Shown here: positions 2,273-50,832 of the stretch, piece after piece | How the letters are laid out: every line of letters starts with the position of its first letter | How positions within the stretch are numbered: the first letter of the stretch is position 1 | From: a virus | IMG/VR virus record: IMGVR_UViG_3300023245_000006 | Location: 32,704 to 96,703 of that record | Length of the DNA: 64,000 nucleotides | Direction: 5' to 3' (one strand) | Notes under the pieces: generated by a model | Seen by the model: the letters and a program-made list of their open reading frames with translations, nothing else | Database searches by the model: none | Told to the model about the DNA's origin: nothing | Made by a program: the position numbers and the translations under genes

Positions 2273-2503
2273 TTAGATGTCAAGGTTCGAAGTTTTGCAG
2301 ACGAGAATTAATGCTCTTTTTCTAGGTCCATATGCAGAAGAATGAGATAATCTATAATACCCAGTGTCTCCGATTGGTCCAGATCCCGAAGCATTAGATG
2401 ATTTACTTTCTAAAAGTTTTTTGATTTCATTTTTATCGGCGATATCGATCACCTGATATTTTCCTTTAGGGTAGAATTGTTCGAGCGAAAGTTCTTTGGA
2501 CAT
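2273..2503 (-). CDS. hypothetical protein
   Basis: ORF with TTGACA promoter just upstream. Confidence 0.6.
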   Translation of the reverse strand: MSKELSLEQFYPKGKYQVIDIADKNEIKKLLESKSSNASGSGPIGDTGYYRLSHSSAYGPRKRALILVCKTSNLDI

Positions 2504-2626
2504 GGATCAAAGACTAGGGGTTTTTACACAAATGTCAAGGACCGATTCCCAAAGAATGATTTTTTACTTTGGGAGATATTTCCCTTATATTTAAAATCAA
2601 TCGGTTCTTCCCCGAAAAGGAAATTT

Positions 2627-2935
2627 TCATTTGATAATTTTGATCTTGTAGCCAAGTAGTTTTTCCAGTTCGGCTACTGTAATGTCTTTGGAGGTTTGTG
2701 TTTTGATTTTAAACTCAGACTCCGTGTATTCCTTACCATTGATGTACCATGATTTATATCCATTTGGATCTTCAATTGCAGGTCCGTCTTCACGATGGAG
2801 ATTACCATTGAGGTACCATGCACTATATCCATCGGAATCTTCAATGGCTGGTCCGTCTTCACGATGGAGATTGCCATTGAGGTACCATGATTTATGCCCA
2901 TCCTCCACTTCGACTGTGTATGTGATTTTATTCAT
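2627..2935 (-). CDS. HREDGPA (MORN-like) repeat protein, 2 repeats
   Basis: 22-aa W(Y/F)xNGxxHREDGPA repeats; one of five paralogs. Confidence 0.85.
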   Translation of the reverse strand: MNKITYTVEVEDGHKSWYLNGNLHREDGPAIEDSDGYSAWYLNGNLHREDGPAIEDPNGYKSWYINGKEYTESEFKIKTQTSKDITVAELEKLLGYKIKIIK

Positions 2936-9373: not shown

Positions 9374-9449
9374 TACTTATAGCGGTTTAAATATATTCAG
9401 AGGATATGATCAAAGAAAATGGTCTTTTAGTGTCTAATTAGTATAAGTA
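9374..9449. promoter_or_regulatory. divergent late-promoter-like TATAAGTA motifs
   Basis: TATAAGTA on - at 9374-9381 and on + at 9442-9449, each close to a start codon; variant of T4 TATAAATA. Confidence 0.65.
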
Positions 9450-38875: not shown

Positions 38876-39103
38876 TTATTTGTTTTTTTGTGACCATTCG
38901 TAAATATACCGAATACCATCATAGATAAAATAAAAACCAAAAAAGATGATCGGGATAAGAATGATAGCGGCCAATAATTGCCACCCAAAGGTGTAAAAAG
39001 CTACCGCAACAATAAACAACAACATAAACAAAAACAGACACCAAAATATAAGGTCGATCATTTCAAATATAAAACTCACCAAGTTTGCAATAATTTTCTT
39101 CAT
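38876..39103 (-). CDS. small membrane protein
   Basis: two TM segments; own TTGACA promoter. Confidence 0.65.
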   Translation of the reverse strand: MKKIIANLVSFIFEMIDLIFWCLFLFMLLFIVAVAFYTFGWQLLAAIILIPIIFFGFYFIYDGIRYIYEWSQKNK

Positions 39104-39145
39104 AGGGTGAAGATATCAAAATTTCAGATATTGTCAATTAAAAAG

Positions 39146-39221
39146 TGGAGTCATCTCTCGGTATCGAACCGAGCAACAAACCTTTTGCAGAGGTTGGGGT
39201 TCACCTGCTCCCTCAGAGGAC
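39146..39221 (-). tRNA. tRNA-Cys(GCA)
   Basis: cloverleaf, U73, CCA. Confidence 0.85.
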
Positions 39222-39232
39222 TAAAATTCTTT

Positions 39233-39365
39233 AAACATGGTGGGATTTGGACCCACTCCTGCATTTGGAGGATTCATCTCTAAGAATAATGGATTTCGCA
39301 TCACTAGTAGATGTTCCAGAGTTCTTTCGATAATGCTGCGTCATTTACATTTCCGCCTCATGTTT
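39233..39365 (-). ncRNA. tRNA-like RNA with an enlarged anticodon-arm insert
   Basis: AAACAUG/CAUGUUU acceptor, D arm, GUGGG/CCCAC T arm; GCAUU/AAUGC stem encloses roughly 65 nt. Confidence 0.5.
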
Positions 39366-39370
39366 AAAAT

Positions 39371-39445
39371 TGGAGCGGGTGGGGAGGGACGATCTCCCAT
39401 CTGGGCATAGGCAATGCCCCATAATAGCCGTTATACGACACCCGC
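39371..39445 (-). tRNA. tRNA-Gly(GCC)
   Basis: cloverleaf, CCA; unusual U37. Confidence 0.88.
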
Positions 39446-39450
39446 TTAAA

Positions 39451-39524
39451 TGGTGGAGCATATGATAATCGAAATCATAGACAAGAATTTTGCAAGAATT
39501 CTCCGCTGACCACAGCTATGCCCC
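39451..39524 (-). tRNA. tRNA-Ala(UGC)
   Basis: G3:U70 pair, CCA. Confidence 0.9.
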
Positions 39525-39560
39525 ATAAAATTTTTCCATGCTCTAATTCGAGCGGAATAA

Positions 39561-39638
39561 TGGCCGCTAAGATCTGATTCGAACAGATTCCCTCATTTTT
39601 TCAGAATGTCGTGCGAGTTCCAACTACACCACTTAGCG
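39561..39638 (-). tRNA. tRNA-Phe(GAA)
   Basis: loop CU GAA AA, CCA. Confidence 0.75.
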
Positions 39639-39728
39639 TTTTTAAATTATCGACTGAACCAGTTTTCTTTGAATCGCCACCACCTTCCGGCAAATCCCTT
39701 AGATGGGGAGGACTCTATCAGTCAAAAT

Positions 39729-39808
39729 TGGTATCCCGCGAGGATTAGCAGCCCTCATTATTTTTCCTTGGAAGGGAAACGCCATTAAGCTATTTAGGCG
39801 AGCGAGAC
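39729..39808 (-). tRNA. tRNA-Gly(UCC), atypical
   Basis: UUUCC-CU UCC AA-GGAAA, CCA. Confidence 0.7.
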
Positions 39809-40025
39809 ATATAAATGGTTAAGAGACAACTCTGTGATCAAATTTCTCAAAAGACTCCCCGAATTACGCATACATTTAGAGGCGCGGGGAGTATGATAAA
39901 TTGAACTGTTTAAGGTTTATCCTCTTTCGCAAACAGGGTTGCGTCATTTGATTATCACAAATAATAACGATTCGGTGAGGTAGACATTTATGAAGTCCGT
40001 CTTGTTTCCAATTCCCATCCAGACT

Positions 40026-40110
40026 TGGTGCGAACGGAGGGACTTGAACCCACACTCCTTGCGGAACCAGATCCTAAATCTGGCGCGTCTGCCGATTTCG
40101 CCACGCTCGC
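40026..40110 (-). tRNA. tRNA-Leu(UAG)
   Basis: canonical cloverleaf, CCA. Confidence 0.93.
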
Positions 40111-40328
40111 ATAAATACAACATTTCAAAGCAAGTTGCCAGCTTTCACCATAGCTTCCACCATAGAGTTTGCAATCTATTTAGCGTTTTATCGCAACTGC
40201 ATAACTCAGAAAAGGTGCGGGGTTGTTGCACTTAGTCAACTATCATATACCGCGCAGAAAGTTTACGAAACAAAAAGGATTTCACGAACGTTCTTTACAG
40301 GTGGAATCGAACTAATCCCAAAGTCATA

Positions 40329-40408
40329 TGGTCGGAAATCGGGCCATCGAATCCCGCTGAATATCGTGATCCCAAATCACGCGACCACGCCAAGCAGTCC
40401 CATTTCCG
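40329..40408 (-). tRNA. tRNA-Pro(UGG)
   Basis: cloverleaf, CCA. Confidence 0.88.
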
Positions 40409-40418
40409 TTAAAATGTA

Positions 40419-40493
40419 TGGTAGGAGATACGGCGTCTGAATCCGTTATCTGGACTTATGAAATCCGAAGTTTACCGCATAACTTAATCTCCC
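40419..40493 (-). tRNA. tRNA(CAU), Met or Ile2
   Basis: loop UU CAU AA, CCA. Confidence 0.75.
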
Positions 40494-40580
40494 ATTTTTA
40501 AATTGGCACTAGTCTTTCCTAGATGTCAACAGAATCGTTTTGTAGCTATTCTGAAATTAAAATTTAAATAGTAGCAAAAA

Positions 40581-40682
40581 TGGTAGCGGGGGCGGCGTTC
40601 GAATCCGATGAAAGGGCTTATTCAGTAATCACATCATGATTACTGAATGAGACCCCCGAGTTACCACCTTCTCTACCCTGCG
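40581..40682 (-). tRNA. initiator-like tRNA-Met(CAU) with a 27-nt hairpin insert in the anticodon loop
   Basis: C1:U72 mismatch, G-rich anticodon stem, insert at 40620-40646. Confidence 0.8.
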
Positions 40683-40689
40683 ATTAAAA

Positions 40690-40875
40690 TGTTTCAAATA
40701 TTTTCTATAAAATTTGTTAAATTCTGGATTATCAGACACATTTAAGATCAACGCTTTGTAGCCTCTTTTCTCGCAAAAATATCGCAAGGCGGTGTTTTTT
40801 TCTTCGAAAAACCTCGTGTAGTTATTTAACGTTTCACCATGCTTCCATATCATTTTTACTTCTACGACTACTCAA
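40690..40875 (-). pseudogene. endonuclease C-terminal remnant
   Basis: VVEVK...K..ALRYFCEKRGY without an N-terminus. Confidence 0.45.
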
Positions 40876-40879
40876 CAAA

Positions 40880-40956
40880 TGGTAGCGAGTCCTAGGAATC
40901 GAACCTAGCTCTCAAGCTTATGAAACTTGAATGGTCAACCAGACCACCTGACCGCA
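40880..40956 (-). tRNA. tRNA-Met(CAU)
   Basis: CAAGU-UU CAU AA-GCUUG, 1:72 mismatch, CCA. Confidence 0.78.
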
Positions 40957-41165
40957 ATAAATTGGTGCATCCAGTGGGATTCGAACCTTCTGTGTTTATT
41001 GTCGTAACACTTCCTCATGAGGTCGTGAAACTATATTAGACTTTTTAATTGTGCGTTCCTTGGGGTCTTTCACAGATCATGATCTGATCGAACCTTGCAG
41101 CACCGTCTCGTTAAAAATGTTTTGGTGGGCGAAGAGTTGTGTTCGCCTACGCACCAAAAAATGTT

Positions 41166-41243
41166 TGGTCCTCCGTGCTGGCGTCGATCCAGCTACCTCG
41201 CTCTTATAAAGAGCTTGCTCTGCCAATCGTGAGCTAACGGAGG
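41166..41243 (-). tRNA. tRNA-Ile(UAU)
   Basis: GCUC-UU UAU AA-GAGC, CCA. Confidence 0.85.
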
Positions 41244-41256
41244 TTAGAAAATTATG

Positions 41257-41327
41257 TCTCTATAGCTGGAATCGAACCAACGAAGAGCCTTTATCAAAGG
41301 CTTATTATACCATTTAATTATACAGAG
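41257..41327 (-). tRNA. tRNA-Ile(GAU)
   Basis: AGCCU-UU GAU AA-AGGCU. Confidence 0.82.
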
Positions 41328-41433
41328 GTTGAAAATACATCCGATCAGTTTCGCGAGACTCTACATGGTAGTAATCATTGGTCGCATGAACCTTCAAACG
41401 TGCAGGCTTTATCGTTTAGATAAATTATTCAAA

Positions 41434-41512
41434 TGGTGCGTCGGGGGAATTTCGAAATCCCATGCGTCCTTTACCGTTTCAATCGGTTCGAAGCCGAAGC
41501 GGATACCAACGC
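41434..41512 (-). tRNA. non-canonical D-arm-less tRNA-like RNA, anticodon UCG (Arg)
   Basis: 7-bp acceptor plus ACCA, T arm, UCGG-CUUCGAA-CCGA. Confidence 0.6.
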
Positions 41513-41516
41513 GAAA

Positions 41517-41601
41517 TGGTGGGTGATCAGGAAATCGAATCCTGCGATCATTACGAGCGGGGTTTACAATCCCGACTGCCTCCTTAACAGTTTAATCACC
41601 C
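41517..41601 (-). tRNA. tRNA-Tyr(GUA)
   Basis: cloverleaf, V arm, CCA. Confidence 0.88.
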
Positions 41602-41615
41602 AAAAATCTAAAATG

Positions 41616-41686
41616 CTCCCCGTCGTGGAATCGAACCACGCCTGTCTGGGCCAAAACCAGATGTGCAACCGATACACCTACAGGGA
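41616..41686 (-). tRNA. tRNA-Gln(UUG)
   Basis: UCUGG-UU UUG GC-CCAGA. Confidence 0.85.
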
Positions 41687-41709
41687 ATAATACTAAAATT
41701 TTCTAAGCG

Positions 41710-41950
41710 ATAGAGTTAGATATCTACATCCAAAAATTAGACTTGGCTTTTGAGATCAATGGTATATTTCATTACTCTCCCATCTACGGGGAATCTAAAT
41801 TGTTAAATATTCAAAGAAATGATACGCGAAAATCAAAAAATGTTTCGAGGATGGTATAGAATTGTGTGTTATAAACACTACCGAACAGATGAAATTCACT
41901 GAATTGTCGTCATTAAAATATTTCCAAATTATCCAAGATAAGATTAATGA
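41710..41950 (+). pseudogene. frameshifted homing-endonuclease remnant
   Basis: IELDIYIQKLDLAFEINGIFHY..ND.RK, then frameshift to KCFEDGIELCVI; no start codon. Confidence 0.7.
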
Positions 41951-41954
41951 AAAA

Positions 41955-42031
41955 TGGTGTGGTATATGATATTCGAAATCATCCTGTCTCTTTCACAAAG
42001 AGAAGTGCGAAACCACTACACTAATACCACC
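41955..42031 (-). tRNA. tRNA-His(GUG)
   Basis: UCUCU-UU GUG AA-AGAGA, G-1, CCA. Confidence 0.88.
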
Positions 42032-42114
42032 ATAAAAACATTCAACCCGTATGCACACATACGGATAGTTTCTAGAAACTAATAACTACACATTGTTAAG
42101 GCAAAGTATCGAAA

Positions 42115-42201
42115 TGGCATGGCTGACGGGAATCGAACCCGCTTCCCATAAGGGACACTGCTTGAAAGGCAGGTCAGACTCTCCGACTTCTGCGCAACCA
42201 C
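42115..42201 (-). tRNA. tRNA-Glu(UUC) with long variable arm
   Basis: CUGC-CU UUC AA-GCAG; UCCC-UUAU-GGGA V arm; CCA. Confidence 0.82.
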
Positions 42202-42218
42202 ATATAAAGTTTTTGAAA

Positions 42219-42314
42219 TGGCATGGATATAAGAAATCGAATCTTATCGTAGTCATTTCTTCCGATTTGACACAAAGGATTTGGAGTCCTTCCGGCTACC
42301 TTAGCCTTATCCAT
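42219..42314 (-). tRNA. tRNA-Trp(CCA) with long variable region
   Basis: AAGGA-CU CCA AA-UCCUU; CCA end. Confidence 0.82.
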
Positions 42315-42340
42315 ATATAAATGTAAACGATCATTATCAA

Positions 42341-42419
42341 TGGTGGCGCAGACAGGAGTCGAACCTGTTATCCCAAAGCTTATGAGACTTGGATTATTAT
42401 TCCGTTTCACTCCCGCGAC
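42341..42419 (-). tRNA. tRNA(CAU), Met or Ile2
   Basis: loop CU CAU AA, CCA. Confidence 0.8.
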
Positions 42420-42462
42420 AAATTGTATGGAGCCAAGACGGGGAATCGGGGTAAGTATTAGT

Positions 42463-43170
42463 ATGAAGATGCTCGTACCAAATATTTCAGATGTTGTTCG
42501 CGGCTCAAAAGTTCCATGCGAATGCTTAAATTGTAAGAAACCTTTTTTCGTTAGTATATCACTAGCACGAAGGGGATTGAAAGGGACAAAAAGGGTCGAT
42601 TTTTGTTCCGTAGAGTGTTCACGACGAGCGAAGACTCTCACCAAGTCTATTATTTGTAAAAATTGCGGAGAAAGTCGGATTATCCAAAATAGCCAAATTG
42701 GTGATAATAATTTCTGTTCAAGGTCTTGTTCGGCAACTTTCAACAACCATTTAAGAAAAATTACTAACACTAAAACAAAAAATTGTGAGAATTGCAAAGA
42801 CTCATTTTCTTTCATCGAGAGGGAAAATCCAAGAAAATTTTGTTCGCAGATTTGCACAAGAAAATATAAACAACAAGAGTTGATTAGTAATTGGAAAGAT
42901 GGGTCCATCAATGGGTGGACGGGAAAGACTATCCGAATTAAAGTATTCGTAAGAAGATATCTTTTTGATAAATATGAAAACAAATGTTGTAAATGTGGTT
43001 GGAGTCAAATTAACCCAACTAGCAAATCTATTCCTTTGGAGGTCAACCATATTGACGGTGATGCTTTGAATTGTTCTGAGGATAACCTTGAACTAATTTG
43101 TCCAAATTGTCATAGTTTGACTCCAAACTTTAGGAGACTTAACAAGAGTGGCAAACGCAATCGATCATGA
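42463..43170 (+). CDS. Zn-finger HNH homing endonuclease
   Basis: FCS..C repeats; LEVNHIDG..N...NL.LICPNCHS; TAAGTA upstream. Confidence 0.9.
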   Translation: MKMLVPNISDVVRGSKVPCECLNCKKPFFVSISLARRGLKGTKRVDFCSVECSRRAKTLTKSIICKNCGESRIIQNSQIGDNNFCSRSCSATFNNHLRKITNTKTKNCENCKDSFSFIERENPRKFCSQICTRKYKQQELISNWKDGSINGWTGKTIRIKVFVRRYLFDKYENKCCKCGWSQINPTSKSIPLEVNHIDGDALNCSEDNLELICPNCHSLTPNFRRLNKSGKRNRS

Positions 43171-43243
43171 GCTTCCTGTCGGTGTCGAACCGACTTCCCC
43201 TCATTACAAGTGAGGAATTCTAGCCAGCGTGAACTAAGGAAGC
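43170..43243 (-). tRNA. tRNA-Thr(UGU)
   Basis: CCUCA-CU UGU AA-UGAGG. Confidence 0.9.
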
Positions 43244-43250
43244 GTAAAAA

Positions 43251-43518
43251 GTCGGCTTCTGGTTTACCAGATTACGCGAGCCGTTCGCAAGTTTCAAATT
43301 TACAAGTCCTAGCAACATTTTGATCGCGATTTTTGTTGTTGCTTCAACGGATTGTCAGACCTATTTCTGACCTATCAGATTCTCCGTCAGAGTCGATGTT
43401 TATTCCAGCCACCTACATACTAATCGACGAACTCTGTAGGTAAAAAAACAGGTGCAATCGGCCACTATGCGACCACGGCAAAAATGTCGGCTTCTGGTTT
43501 ACCAGATCATCGGGCCGA
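43251..43518 (-). repeat. two copies of a 22-nt hairpin element (43251-43272 and 43486-43507)
   Basis: GTCGGCTTCTGGTTTACCAGAT exact direct repeat. Confidence 0.8.
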
Positions 43519-43534
43519 AACGATATTTAACATT

Positions 43535-43607
43535 TGGTATCCCTAGAAGGAGTCGAACCTTCCCTAGTTGCTTAGAAGGCATCTGTCCAGAATCCGCTGG
43601 CAGGGAT
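43535..43607 (-). tRNA. tRNA-Arg(UCU)
   Basis: loop CU UCU AA, CCA. Confidence 0.82.
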
Positions 43608-43614
43608 ATTTTAA

Positions 43615-44199
43615 TTATAGAATTTTTCTACTCCATCCACCATGACCTAAGAAAGAATTTTGTGGTTTATTGATCTTAAACCCCAACTTCTTTGATTTAA
43701 ACTTCTTACGGGCTGTTTTGATTAGGTCTCTTATGTCCAAGTAAGTTCTAAATGTTACCATAACCCCACGAAGAGATTCGAAGGAATGCACATTCTTCTT
43801 AAAGAGACTCGACATCTTTTTCTTCGAATTTATCGGTAAACCATTCATTTTTGAGATGAATAAATCATCTATCTCGAATTTAGTCTTCATCATTGAAATA
43901 AGTGAACGTATCTTTTTCACGCTACGGCACTTAGTTAAGAGATGCCAGCTATGAATCTTATTATGACAAGGGCGACAGATTCCGATTAAATCGGTCTCCA
44001 AATTCTCGAACGGAATACGGTCATATGTTATGTGGTGAACATCATGTGAAACGGTCACATCACAAATTCGACATACTTCATCCCTTTCCAATACAATAAG
44101 CCTCTTCTTCTTCCAATCGGGAGATACTAGATATTCGTTTCTATACTCATCCCTAGTATAGTGAATTGGATATGGATTTTTCATAAAATGTGCAGACAT
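43615..44199 (-). CDS. HNH endonuclease
   Basis: YL.SPDW, CRIC, DVHHITY and C..CH..IH. Confidence 0.85.
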   Translation of the reverse strand: MSAHFMKNPYPIHYTRDEYRNEYLVSPDWKKKRLIVLERDEVCRICDVTVSHDVHHITYDRIPFENLETDLIGICRPCHNKIHSWHLLTKCRSVKKIRSLISMMKTKFEIDDLFISKMNGLPINSKKKMSSLFKKNVHSFESLRGVMVTFRTYLDIRDLIKTARKKFKSKKLGFKINKPQNSFLGHGGWSRKIL

Positions 44200-44254: not shown

Positions 44255-44492
44255 TTTAGAACGATGGTTATTCTATAGTAGAAGTTGATGCTTCTACCCA
44301 TAGATTATTACCACACAAGATCTTTTAGATCTCCTGTCAATTGGGGGCTATTCCTATTGGAACGAATCGGAAACCATTTTTCAATATGCTTTCGAGGCAC
44401 AAGGTCCGATTTTCTTTATTATTGTTTTTTCGCCGTTCTTACCGCCACTAGAAGTGAACTAGGCTAACTAAGTCTTCTCAAAATGTTCTAAA
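44255..44492 (-). ncRNA. structured RNA at the head of the tRNA array
   Basis: UUUAGAAC/GUUCUAAA closing stem with several internal hairpins. Confidence 0.45.
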
Positions 44493-44600
44493 AATTGTTT
44501 TTGTTGTTTTTCTTTCAACCCCTTTACTGTCTCATATTTTTAAGAGATTGTCAAATTTTTTTTACTTTTTCTTTTTGTTTTCAGTTTTTGGTTCCTAAAA

Positions 44601-44660
44601 CAAAAAAGGGAACCTTTTGGGTTCCCCGATTATTCGTCTACTATTAGATTATAATCAGGG
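44601..44660 (-). terminator. intrinsic terminator with overlapping antiterminator (attenuator)
   Basis: GGGAACC-CAAAA-GGUUCCC-UUUUUU; competing stem CCCUGAUUAU/AUAAUCGGGG. Confidence 0.8.
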
Positions 44661-44663
44661 ATG

Positions 44664-44753
44664 TTACATAAAGAGCCATTCAGCGACACAATAACCTAAA
44701 CGACCTATAATCGGTTGCGGTTTATGCATTGTTGTGTTTGATCTTAACTTCAT
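44664..44753 (-). CDS. putative attenuator leader peptide MKLRSNTTMHKPQPIIGRLGYCVAEWLFM
   Basis: 29 codons; AAGGA SD-like site 8 nt upstream; stop 3 nt before the antiterminator arm. Confidence 0.7.
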   Translation of the reverse strand: MKLRSNTTMHKPQPIIGRLGYCVAEWLFM

Positions 44754-44798
44754 CTTATATGTCCTTCTCTATTTACTTATACTTGAGTGTATCATTTT

Positions 44799-45122: not shown

Positions 45123-45208
45123 TAACGATTACTTATCATTGTGTCGTATCGTCGTCAATAATTTCTTTATCATCATCCTAGATTACCTTATTCTAGGATG
45201 GTTTGGTT

Positions 45209-45640
45209 TTAGTGATTATCGTTATTAATAATTAGTTCGCTAGTAGGTGAAAACAAAAATCTTTCTAGATCGGATTTGCTCTGAAATGCTTCGAGAGCGG
45301 TTCCCACCGATTGGTGGTCGATGTAGGTATAGTTTTTATTAGATTCGCAACCAACGGTGAAGTCGAATACTACATCACCACAATGATATGCATCTTTAAG
45401 AATCTCGACTAACCAATTTTTAAGATTTTCGTTTCCGGTTTCCATTGCATCAACAGCAACGTAACAAATTTTGCTATAAATATCGGTAAAACTTTTATAT
45501 CCCCAACCATATTCACCACTTTCGATTACAAAAGGTTCTCCATTATAATCTATCTTTGGCATTTCGATATTCGTCCCAATTGTGAGAGAATGGCTCGATG
45601 AACTATTTGTTTCGAATGTGCTGGTTCTAATTGTTTTCAT
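45209..45640 (-). CDS. conserved phage protein
   Basis: IRTSTFETNSSSSHS and YIDHQS motifs. Confidence 0.75.
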   Translation of the reverse strand: MKTIRTSTFETNSSSSHSLTIGTNIEMPKIDYNGEPFVIESGEYGWGYKSFTDIYSKICYVAVDAMETGNENLKNWLVEILKDAYHCGDVVFDFTVGCESNKNYTYIDHQSVGTALEAFQSKSDLERFLFSPTSELIINNDNH

Positions 45641-46523: not shown

Positions 46524-47207
46524 TCAATGATGATCTATTTTTTTATCCATTTTTTTGTCCATTATTACTTTGATATCATCAAATGACACAGGACCGCCAA
46601 AATTTTCGATACCTACATCTAACCGAGAAGAGTTGAGATATTCTGGTTGACTTTCGACATCGACACCGTGGCTGTGTCCACTGAGATGCCACACAGAACC
46701 TTTGTGAGAATCTATCCATATGCGATGAGCAAAATGCGAACAAAATATATATTGGGAGTTTTTTTCGGTTTTAATTTTAGCCAGAAGATTATTACCATAA
46801 AACGTTATCTTGTCTTGATAGGTAATGGGATACATTTCGGTAGTAAGATCACATTCACCAATTTTTTCTTTCAGGGAGATTCGATATATTTCTTTGACAT
46901 AACTATTATGATTTCCCCATAAAAAATGGATGTGTCCGTTCAGAGAAAATAGAATTTCCTGTCCTCTTTTAAAGGCATCATTTCCGGCCCCAACCAAAAA
47001 ATCCCCCAAATGTATCACGTTATCTTGTGGTGATACGATATCATTCCATCGATTTTTTATCGCAATATCGTGCTCAGATATGTTGGAGAATCCTCGTTTT
47101 CCTAAAATAAAATCTCGATCATGGCAAAAATGGGTGTCAGACACAAAGAATGTTTTTACGTCTTTGTTGTGGTTAAATGTAAATTTATTAAACATATCAC
47201 CGATCAT
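46524..47207 (-). CDS. calcineurin-like metallophosphoesterase
   Basis: SDTHF.H, HLGD, GNH and GHSH. Confidence 0.9.
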   Translation of the reverse strand: MIGDMFNKFTFNHNKDVKTFFVSDTHFCHDRDFILGKRGFSNISEHDIAIKNRWNDIVSPQDNVIHLGDFLVGAGNDAFKRGQEILFSLNGHIHFLWGNHNSYVKEIYRISLKEKIGECDLTTEMYPITYQDKITFYGNNLLAKIKTEKNSQYIFCSHFAHRIWIDSHKGSVWHLSGHSHGVDVESQPEYLNSSRLDVGIENFGGPVSFDDIKVIMDKKMDKKIDHH

Positions 47208-49950: not shown

Positions 49951-49988
49951 TAATTGGTAAATGATCAAAACATTTATAAGTAATTAAC

Positions 49989-50798: not shown

Positions 50799-50832
50799 GA
50801 AGGTTTCTTAGTTATAAGTATTATCATAGAAG

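Follow-up and report, generated by a model that had tools for sequence, protein, structure and literature searches.

The locus described here lies in a window of 64,000 nt, which comprises bases 32704-96703 of a 96.7-kb IMG/VR record of an uncultured salt-lake phage (G+C content 36.5%; completeness 46% as estimated by CheckV). From about 47400 leftwards, the minus strand carries a phosphoesterase gene, small ORFs, genes for proteins of 143 and 107 aa, the leader element considered below, an HNH endonuclease gene and then tRNA genes, which extend over about 10 kb with other HNH genes interspersed. The distance from the switch to the first tRNA is 1.0-1.4 kb, with the 585-nt HNH gene in between. 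The features referred to throughout are the following:

46524-47207, minus strand: phosphoesterase gene (phrog_547)
45209-45640, minus strand: 143-aa gene (phrog_28997)
ATG at 45136, minus strand: 107-aa orphan gene, with GATAAGTA 7 nt 5' of its ATG
44774-44781, minus strand: promoter-like motif TATAAGTA, 20 nt 5' of the leader ATG
44766-44762, minus strand: AAGGA, SD-like, 5' of the leader ORF
44664-44753, minus strand: 29-codon leader ORF MKLRSNTTMHKPQPIIGRLGYCVAEWLFM, stop codon at 44666-44664
44707-44714, minus strand: CCGAUUAU, at codons 14-16 of the leader ORF, nearly identical to the 5' arm of the antiterminator
44624-44660, minus strand: putative antiterminator hairpin, 5' arm CCCUGAUUAU (44660-44651), 3' arm AUAAUCGGGG (44633-44624), -13.4 kcal/mol alone
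44602-44627, minus strand: predicted intrinsic terminator, GGGGAACC-CAAAA-GGUUCCCU plus U6, with a G+C-rich 8-bp stem, -12.3 kcal/mol
44526-44554, minus strand: candidate sigma-70-type promoter 3' of the terminator (TTGACA, 17 nt with TGn, GACAGT)
43615-44199, minus strand: HNH endonuclease gene (phrog_144, E 1.3e-10), downstream of the switch and ahead of the tRNA genes
39146-43608, minus strand: first tRNA block, by default and relaxed ARAGORN calls Arg-UCU (candidate), Thr, Met (candidate), Glu-UUC, His, Gln, Tyr, Ile x2, Met, Met (candidate), Pro-UGG (candidate), Leu-UAG, Phe, Ala, Gly and Cys
39110-39137, minus strand: strong internal promoter heading the second tRNA block, with Val, Asp x2, Asn, Ser, Glu-CUC, Leu-UAA and Ser x2 downstream

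The upstream motif, the ORF, both hairpins and the terminator had all been listed in an earlier first-pass annotation of this DNA, and each of them was confirmed on the minus strand at the positions given above. Many salt-lake metagenome runs carry near-identical DNA. The contigs from these DNA runs are near-clonal, with a single low-depth change (44734 G>A, Thr7Ile in the leader), and population variation is thus uninformative.

The motif TATAAGTA is present in 8 copies in the 96.7-kb contig, six of which sit 6-12 nt 5' of an ATG that opens an ORF of 168-1507 aa, on both strands. As these six copies lie just 5' of the start codons of long genes, the motif is, judged by its placement, a genuine promoter-like signal that would give very short leaders. 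Many phage genes, structural ones included, have either TATAAGTA or TAAGTA only 5-12 nt 5' of the ATG (for example, 9374-9381 on the minus strand, and 9442-9449, 49975-49982 and 50813-50820 on the plus strand). Together with the lack of SD sites, this spacing implies leaderless or near-leaderless mRNAs and a phage-specific, possibly late, promoter. Sites of the form TTGACA-N15-19-TANNNT number 30 where 6.3 are expected, a five-fold enrichment, and are found in 1-48927, almost all on the minus strand. Many of these sites present the layout TTGACA-N6-TAAAAA-N-GATAATAT, which suggests a uniform family of early sigma-70-type promoters.

A possible weak TTGACA promoter after the terminator had been pointed out previously and is indeed present about 50 nt downstream, at 44554, with a perfect -35, a TGn and a spacer resembling that of the phage's 30 TTGACA-type promoters. 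Its -10 (GACAGT) is poor, and for this reason the site fell below the threshold of our scan. The roughly 300 nt from this candidate promoter to the HNH start codon (44255-44500, minus strand) contain no ORF and no Rfam match. Further promoters had been placed inside the array, and a strong one is present at 39137-39110. At 38876-39103 (minus strand), between that promoter and tRNA-Val, lies an ORF for a very hydrophobic 75-aa membrane protein, which takes the place of the leader cassette at the head of block 2.

The leader ORF contains 19 of the 20 amino acids, with only Asp being absent, in 23 distinct codons. At least 19 amino acids in 29 codons are rare in random ORFs of the genome composition (P 0.002), in shuffles of the ORF's own bases (P 0.005) and in 29-residue windows taken from the long ORFs of the phage (0.12% of windows, P 0.0012). 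The diversity emphasized by the first-pass annotation is thus unusual when measured against random and shuffled ORFs, and is the highest among the 423 small ORFs of the contig; it should be considered here that about 0.9 small ORFs with at least 19 amino acids are expected by chance across the contig.

For the translation of this ORF, the AAGGA had been taken as an SD site, a claim that does not hold. SD-like sites precede only 7 of the 92 long ORFs of the phage, which equals the background of 7.5%, and as the phage genes do not use SD sites, AAGGA carries no weight as evidence for translation. We therefore scored start contexts with a position-weight matrix built from real starts of the phage, which are A-rich and lack SD sites. 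With a score of 5.38, the context of the leader ATG exceeds that of 86% of the long genes and falls in the top 0.9% of 464 small ORFs. By this measure, the start context resembles that of a real gene and is a credible candidate for a translation start. No homologue of the 29-residue peptide was found by tblastn against phage records.

The antiterminator 5' arm starts only 3 nt after the leader stop codon, while its 3' arm has the G residues at 44626-44624 in common with the terminator. Both structures need this G-run, so that the two pairings are mutually exclusive, as had been claimed for them. When the RNA was folded up to the terminator 3' arm, both states had a probability of 0.40-0.42 and differed by 0.3 kcal/mol, i.e., they are predicted to be iso-energetic. 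In the full leader, with the U-tract included, the antiterminator is the MFE state. Such a balance is rare by chance. When the 36 nt between the stop codon and the G-run were shuffled, the competitor was 7.6 +/- 2.2 kcal/mol weaker than the terminator, and the real difference was matched in only 0.15% of the shuffles (P 0.0015). Each of the other four strong terminators on the contig has a 12-bp stem, a difference of 8-11 kcal/mol and no competitor, and is stronger than the terminator at 44602. An equally strong competitor was seen in 11 (8%) of the 141 strict terminators from 1.6 Mb of phage DNA that served as natural controls.

Folds ending at 44651 revealed no anti-antiterminator or pause (1:2) hairpin, as the 5' arm remained mostly unpaired, with weak long-range pairing of CCCU only. 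The element would thus represent a two-hairpin variant, in which read-through would be the default for an untranslated leader and tight coupling would be required for termination. Searches for Rfam leader, riboswitch and T-box families gave no match at the gathering score, with only chance-level hits (E up to 5).

To consider the ribosome, we calculated equilibrium folds in which a 30-nt footprint was masked. With the footprint at the stop codon, the terminator reached a probability of 0.78 and the antiterminator was abolished, whereas footprints elsewhere gave terminator probabilities of 0.15-0.47, and those at codons 16-25 gave antiterminator probabilities of 0.47-0.73. These equilibrium folds agree in direction with an attenuator, with a contrast that is only moderate (0.78 versus 0.15-0.47). 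They also suggest that stalls at early leader codons antiterminate poorly. In the masked folds, the in-ORF near-copy CCGAUUAU can pair with AUAAUCGG, and this third pairing would blunt the effect of early stalls.

The tRNA genes behind the HNH gene fall into two blocks. With default settings, ARAGORN calls Thr, His, Gln, Tyr, Ile x2, Met, Leu-UAG, Phe, Ala, Gly and Cys in block 1, and relaxed settings add Arg-UCU, Met, Glu-UUC, Met and Pro-UGG. By Rfam scores, Glu-UUC reaches 31 bits (above the gathering score in a local search), one Met 23.9 and Arg 20.6. The candidates outside the default calls lie on the minus strand at 42118-42201, 42344-42419, 43536-43608 and 40329-40493 and comprise Glu-UUC with a long extra arm, Met-CAU, Arg-UCU, Pro-UGG and a further Met-CAU; several appear to encode CCA. 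For the whole array, the 19 amino acids credited to it in the first-pass annotation are reduced to 16 by default ARAGORN calls and to 18 when low-score candidates are included.

We compared the leader codons with the anticodons of these tRNAs. Over the whole array, the leader behaves as an ordinary gene, with a coverage of 62% as compared to 64% for the average gene (default ARAGORN calls) and a match that is not significant (P 0.08-0.25). For block 1, the leader codons match 10 of 12 anticodons when the default calls are used (P 0.034) and 13 of 15 once low-score candidates are added (P 0.005), while for block 2 they match only 3 of 8 (P 0.97). When the nearest 10 distinct anticodons are taken in transcription order, low-score candidates included, all 10 are sampled (P 0.0024; 0.006 family-wise over all prefixes). 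It should be noted that the best of these codon-match P values rest on low-scoring tRNA candidates and that the block boundary was picked after inspection. The two block-1 species that are not sampled, Leu-UAG and Ala-UGC, are matched at the amino acid level, via CUC and GCU. Both Asp tRNAs, for the one amino acid missing from the leader, lie in block 2, behind the later promoter. Block 1 does not account for the Lys, Trp, Ser, Asn and Val codons of the leader, and for its Lys and Trp codons no phage tRNA was detected. The proposal that the leader samples nearly every tRNA is not supported in that form, since the leader matches the nearest block but under-samples block 2, and the first-pass interpretation as a whole is partly supported. 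Such a pattern would fit feedback that concerns the nearest of the phage's own tRNAs better than a general alarm set off when any host tRNA is lost.

Further to these analyses, we searched for relatives of the locus. The region had no blastn match in 50,697 phage records, and the neighboring 143-aa protein had no tblastn match in phages. In IMG/VR, nothing was found when the products of the 107-aa, 143-aa and phosphoesterase genes were each used as a query, and among 5.8 billion proteins the 107-aa gene had near-identical copies only. An exact-pattern scan of IMG/VR for both hairpin arms yielded two chance matches in unrelated contexts. The 143-aa family has 240 homologues, some of them with 50-53% identity on long ENA/Logan contigs of up to 232 kb; the loci of homologues in IMG/VR and JGI were not syntenic with the window. 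Via this family, we gathered 136 loci, which serve as a tRNA-blind sample of large phages.

Comparable cassettes of a mini-ORF and a terminator head tRNA blocks in three of these phages, here L025, L026 and L140, all of which carry the 143-aa family. These should be regarded as look-alikes, as they are not homologous to the leader of the window:

L025, 6460-6565: TGnTATAAT 6 nt 5' of a 15-codon ORF, MQNATTLLYTLFSLT
L026, 8547-8690: promoter and 25-codon ORF directly after the 143-aa homologue, then a terminator
L140, 2774-2954: promoter, 26-codon ORF and CCAAUGGUUG immediately after the stop codon

In L025, the antiterminator begins 2 nt after the stop codon, and its stability exceeds that of the terminator state by 6 kcal/mol (shuffle P 0.003). 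Here tRNA-Tyr begins 16 nt 3' of the U-tract, and the ORF holds a cognate codon for all 8 of the following tRNAs (Tyr, Phe, Leu x4, Ser and Thr; joint P ~1e-5). The L026 ORF has 9 Lys, Gln or Arg codons, with tRNAs in the order Gln-Lys-Arg-Gln 11 nt after the terminator (binomial P 0.002), and no antiterminator is evident in this cassette. In L140, CCAAUGGUUG pairs with the terminator 5' arm, with an energy difference of 2.0 (shuffle P 0.049) and a codon match of P ~0.005; as in the window, the cassette is followed by a TTGACA promoter and then by the tRNAs. When all loci (1.6 Mb of phage DNA) are considered, terminators followed by a tRNA within 2.5 kb face stronger competitors than the remainder (Mann-Whitney P 0.001; Fisher P 0.005, which becomes 0.02 if this window is left out). 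Such a cassette is absent from the L016 and L021 arrays, and also from block 2 of the window and the first block of L025, so that the arrangement is frequent but not universal.

What the sequence itself shows is the set of elements with their overlap and energies, together with the match of the codons, and on this basis we regard the architecture (promoter-like motif, mini-ORF, antiterminator and overlapping terminator) as real and statistically unusual. As to what it does, we lean towards a functional two-hairpin transcription attenuator that is read by the ribosome; translation of the ORF, the effect of the ribosome on folding and the resulting read-through are the steps that we infer. Transcripts with the 29-codon leader would start at the TATAAGTA-type promoter at 44781 or enter the leader from early promoters further upstream. 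A ribosome that reaches the stop codon in time would cover CCCUGAUUAU with its footprint, which would free the G-run, such that the terminator closes and the transcript ends at 44602. If the ribosome is delayed in the leader, the upstream hairpin would take the G-run and the polymerase would continue via the HNH gene into block 1. The leader codons are those read by block 1 (Arg, Thr, Met, Glu, His, Gln, Tyr, Ile x2, Pro, Phe, Gly and Cys), and the likely logic is feedback, in which slow decoding of block-1 codons would raise transcription of the matching phage tRNAs.

Other readings of the same stretch need to be considered. The terminator could be an ordinary operon end for the upstream early or late genes (phosphoesterase to 107-aa gene), with the array driven by the promoter at 44554 and the internal promoters, and with the ORF and the upstream hairpin being incidental. 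A terminator followed 50 nt on by TTGACA is a classic boundary of transcription units, and the sequence suggests that the 44554 candidate could drive the array alone; as this promoter and the 585-nt HNH gene intervene ahead of the tRNAs, read-through from the switch may not be needed to express the array. The chance expectation of about 0.9 equally diverse small ORFs, the 8% of natural terminators with an equal competitor and an SD site that is meaningless in this phage point the same way. Nonetheless, several independent features of low probability would have to coincide on one 180-nt stretch: a start context in the top 0.9%, the amino acid diversity (P 0.002-0.005), the competitor (P 0.0015 against shuffles), a stop codon 3 nt before the competing arm, an own TATAAGTA motif and the codon match (P 0.006-0.03). 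As comparable cassettes also precede tRNA blocks in L025, L026 and L140, we consider an operon end unlikely. A promoter-like motif and a terminator that bracket a transcript of about 170 nt, with a good start context inside, would also fit a stand-alone small gene or sRNA that makes the 29-residue peptide, or acts as RNA, and exerts no downstream control. A hairpin beside the terminator is the usual 3' end of an sRNA, and a promoter follows the unit here, as it does in L140. However, the peptide has no homologue by phage tblastn and the RNA no Rfam family, windows of real proteins show a 19-amino-acid composition as rarely (0.12%) as random ORFs do, and both the sharing of the G-run and the codon match to adjacent tRNAs, the latter also in L025 and L026, would be left unexplained. 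We thus find a stand-alone unit quite improbable.

The function proposed in the first-pass annotation shares the attenuator and differs in what is sensed: a near-all-amino-acid leader by which loss of any host tRNA, due to anticodon nucleases or starvation, would turn on the whole 11-kb array. In its favor are a leader that fits 19 of the 20 amino acids into 29 codons (P 0.002-0.005), an array that covers 16-18 amino acids and a two-hairpin design, in which a stall almost anywhere upstream leaves the antiterminator free. Yet the leader matches the nearest block and not the array, with block 2 under-sampled (3 of 8) and both Asp tRNAs lacking a leader codon; whole-array coverage equals the genome-wide background (62% versus 64%); block 2 has a strong promoter of its own; and early-codon stalls appear, from the masked folds, to antiterminate poorly. 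Of the readings considered, such a general sensor is the one to which we give the least credence.

Returning to the block-specific attenuator, leader-peptide transcription attenuators are well known from amino acid operons, as in trpL, hisL, leuL, pheL and the multivalent thrL and ilvL. With these, the element of the window has in common a short ORF before a terminator whose 5' arm can pair upstream instead and, as proposed here, a selection of the pairing by the ribosome's position and codons that correspond to the controlled product. In contrast to the amino acid operons, where biosynthetic enzymes are regulated, tRNA genes would be regulated here, and the leader presents single codons for at least 13 tRNAs rather than a run of one codon. 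The canonical scheme includes a 1:2 hairpin (PMC5314783), whereas the element of the window has neither this hairpin nor an Rfam leader match and belongs to a genome that does not use SD sites. Stalling uORFs that sense translation stress have been described for toiL in E. coli (PMC12121999) and for the leader of vmlR in B. subtilis (PMC9226507). In these systems, as would be the case here, a small uORF serves to report the slowing of ribosomes at any of several positions, and it alters downstream RNA structure and transcription. However, toiL and vmlR respond to antibiotics, and toiL acts via occlusion of the RBS and Rho, while the window presents an intrinsic terminator and codons that point to tRNA supply. 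T-box riboswitches likewise use a terminator/antiterminator switch that reads tRNA status; they bind uncharged tRNA via a specifier loop and the T-box sequence, whereas the element of the window, which has no such motifs or Rfam match, would read tRNA supply through the ribosome.

A full-text literature search found no published description of leader-peptide control of tRNA genes. The nearest case is the trn operon of Anabaena PCC 7120, a silent operon of 26 tRNA genes that is induced by translational stress (PMC8421152, PMC10272220). This is similarly an accessory tRNA array with transcription that rises when translation is impaired, although it lies on a cyanobacterial megaplasmid and not in a phage, and is controlled by a protein repressor, TrcR, rather than by a leader peptide and terminator. 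Phage tRNA arrays are seen as a counter to host defences that cleave tRNAs and as compensation for codon usage (PMC11464382, PMC11555353).

If true, an attenuator with test codons for the very tRNAs encoded behind it would provide feedback by sensing decoding capacity directly, and would extend a classic regulatory principle from amino acid supply to tRNA supply. Such a reading predicts that read-through is induced in a codon-specific manner. More broadly, we tentatively propose, with a confidence that falls slightly short of even, that in large tRNA phages each tRNA block is headed by a mini-ORF in the codons of its own tRNAs and by a terminator/antiterminator, which would confer trp-style feedback. 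A block would then be transcribed if, and only if, those codons are decoded slowly, for example due to cleavage of host tRNAs or a mismatch in codon usage, and the window would represent a many-amino-acid member of this class, with at least 13 tRNA species sampled. As a promoter and an HNH gene intervene, the window is less clean than L025, and its value is mainly that of one more independent case, in which the leader tracks the nearest tRNA block.

Two additional observations concern the neighborhood of such cassettes. L140 (the relative G002; 2494-2760, plus strand) carries a promoter-driven 67-aa ORF with three KF(A/G)GPI(I/V)G repeats, which ends in a very strong terminator (z -6.4) just 5' of the leader-like cassette and the tRNA array. 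A 'PIIG' likeness between this ORF and the leader of the window was rejected, as BLASTP gave no alignment and the terminator of the repeat ORF has no competitor. The 143-aa family has no Pfam match and displays the invariant motifs ETNSSSSHS, YIDHQS and DNDNH. Its members adjoin or lie inside tRNA arrays in at least four large phages (45209-45640 on the minus strand of the window, L025:8001-8429, L026:8001-8438 and L016:8001-8504), which suggests a tRNA-related role for this family.
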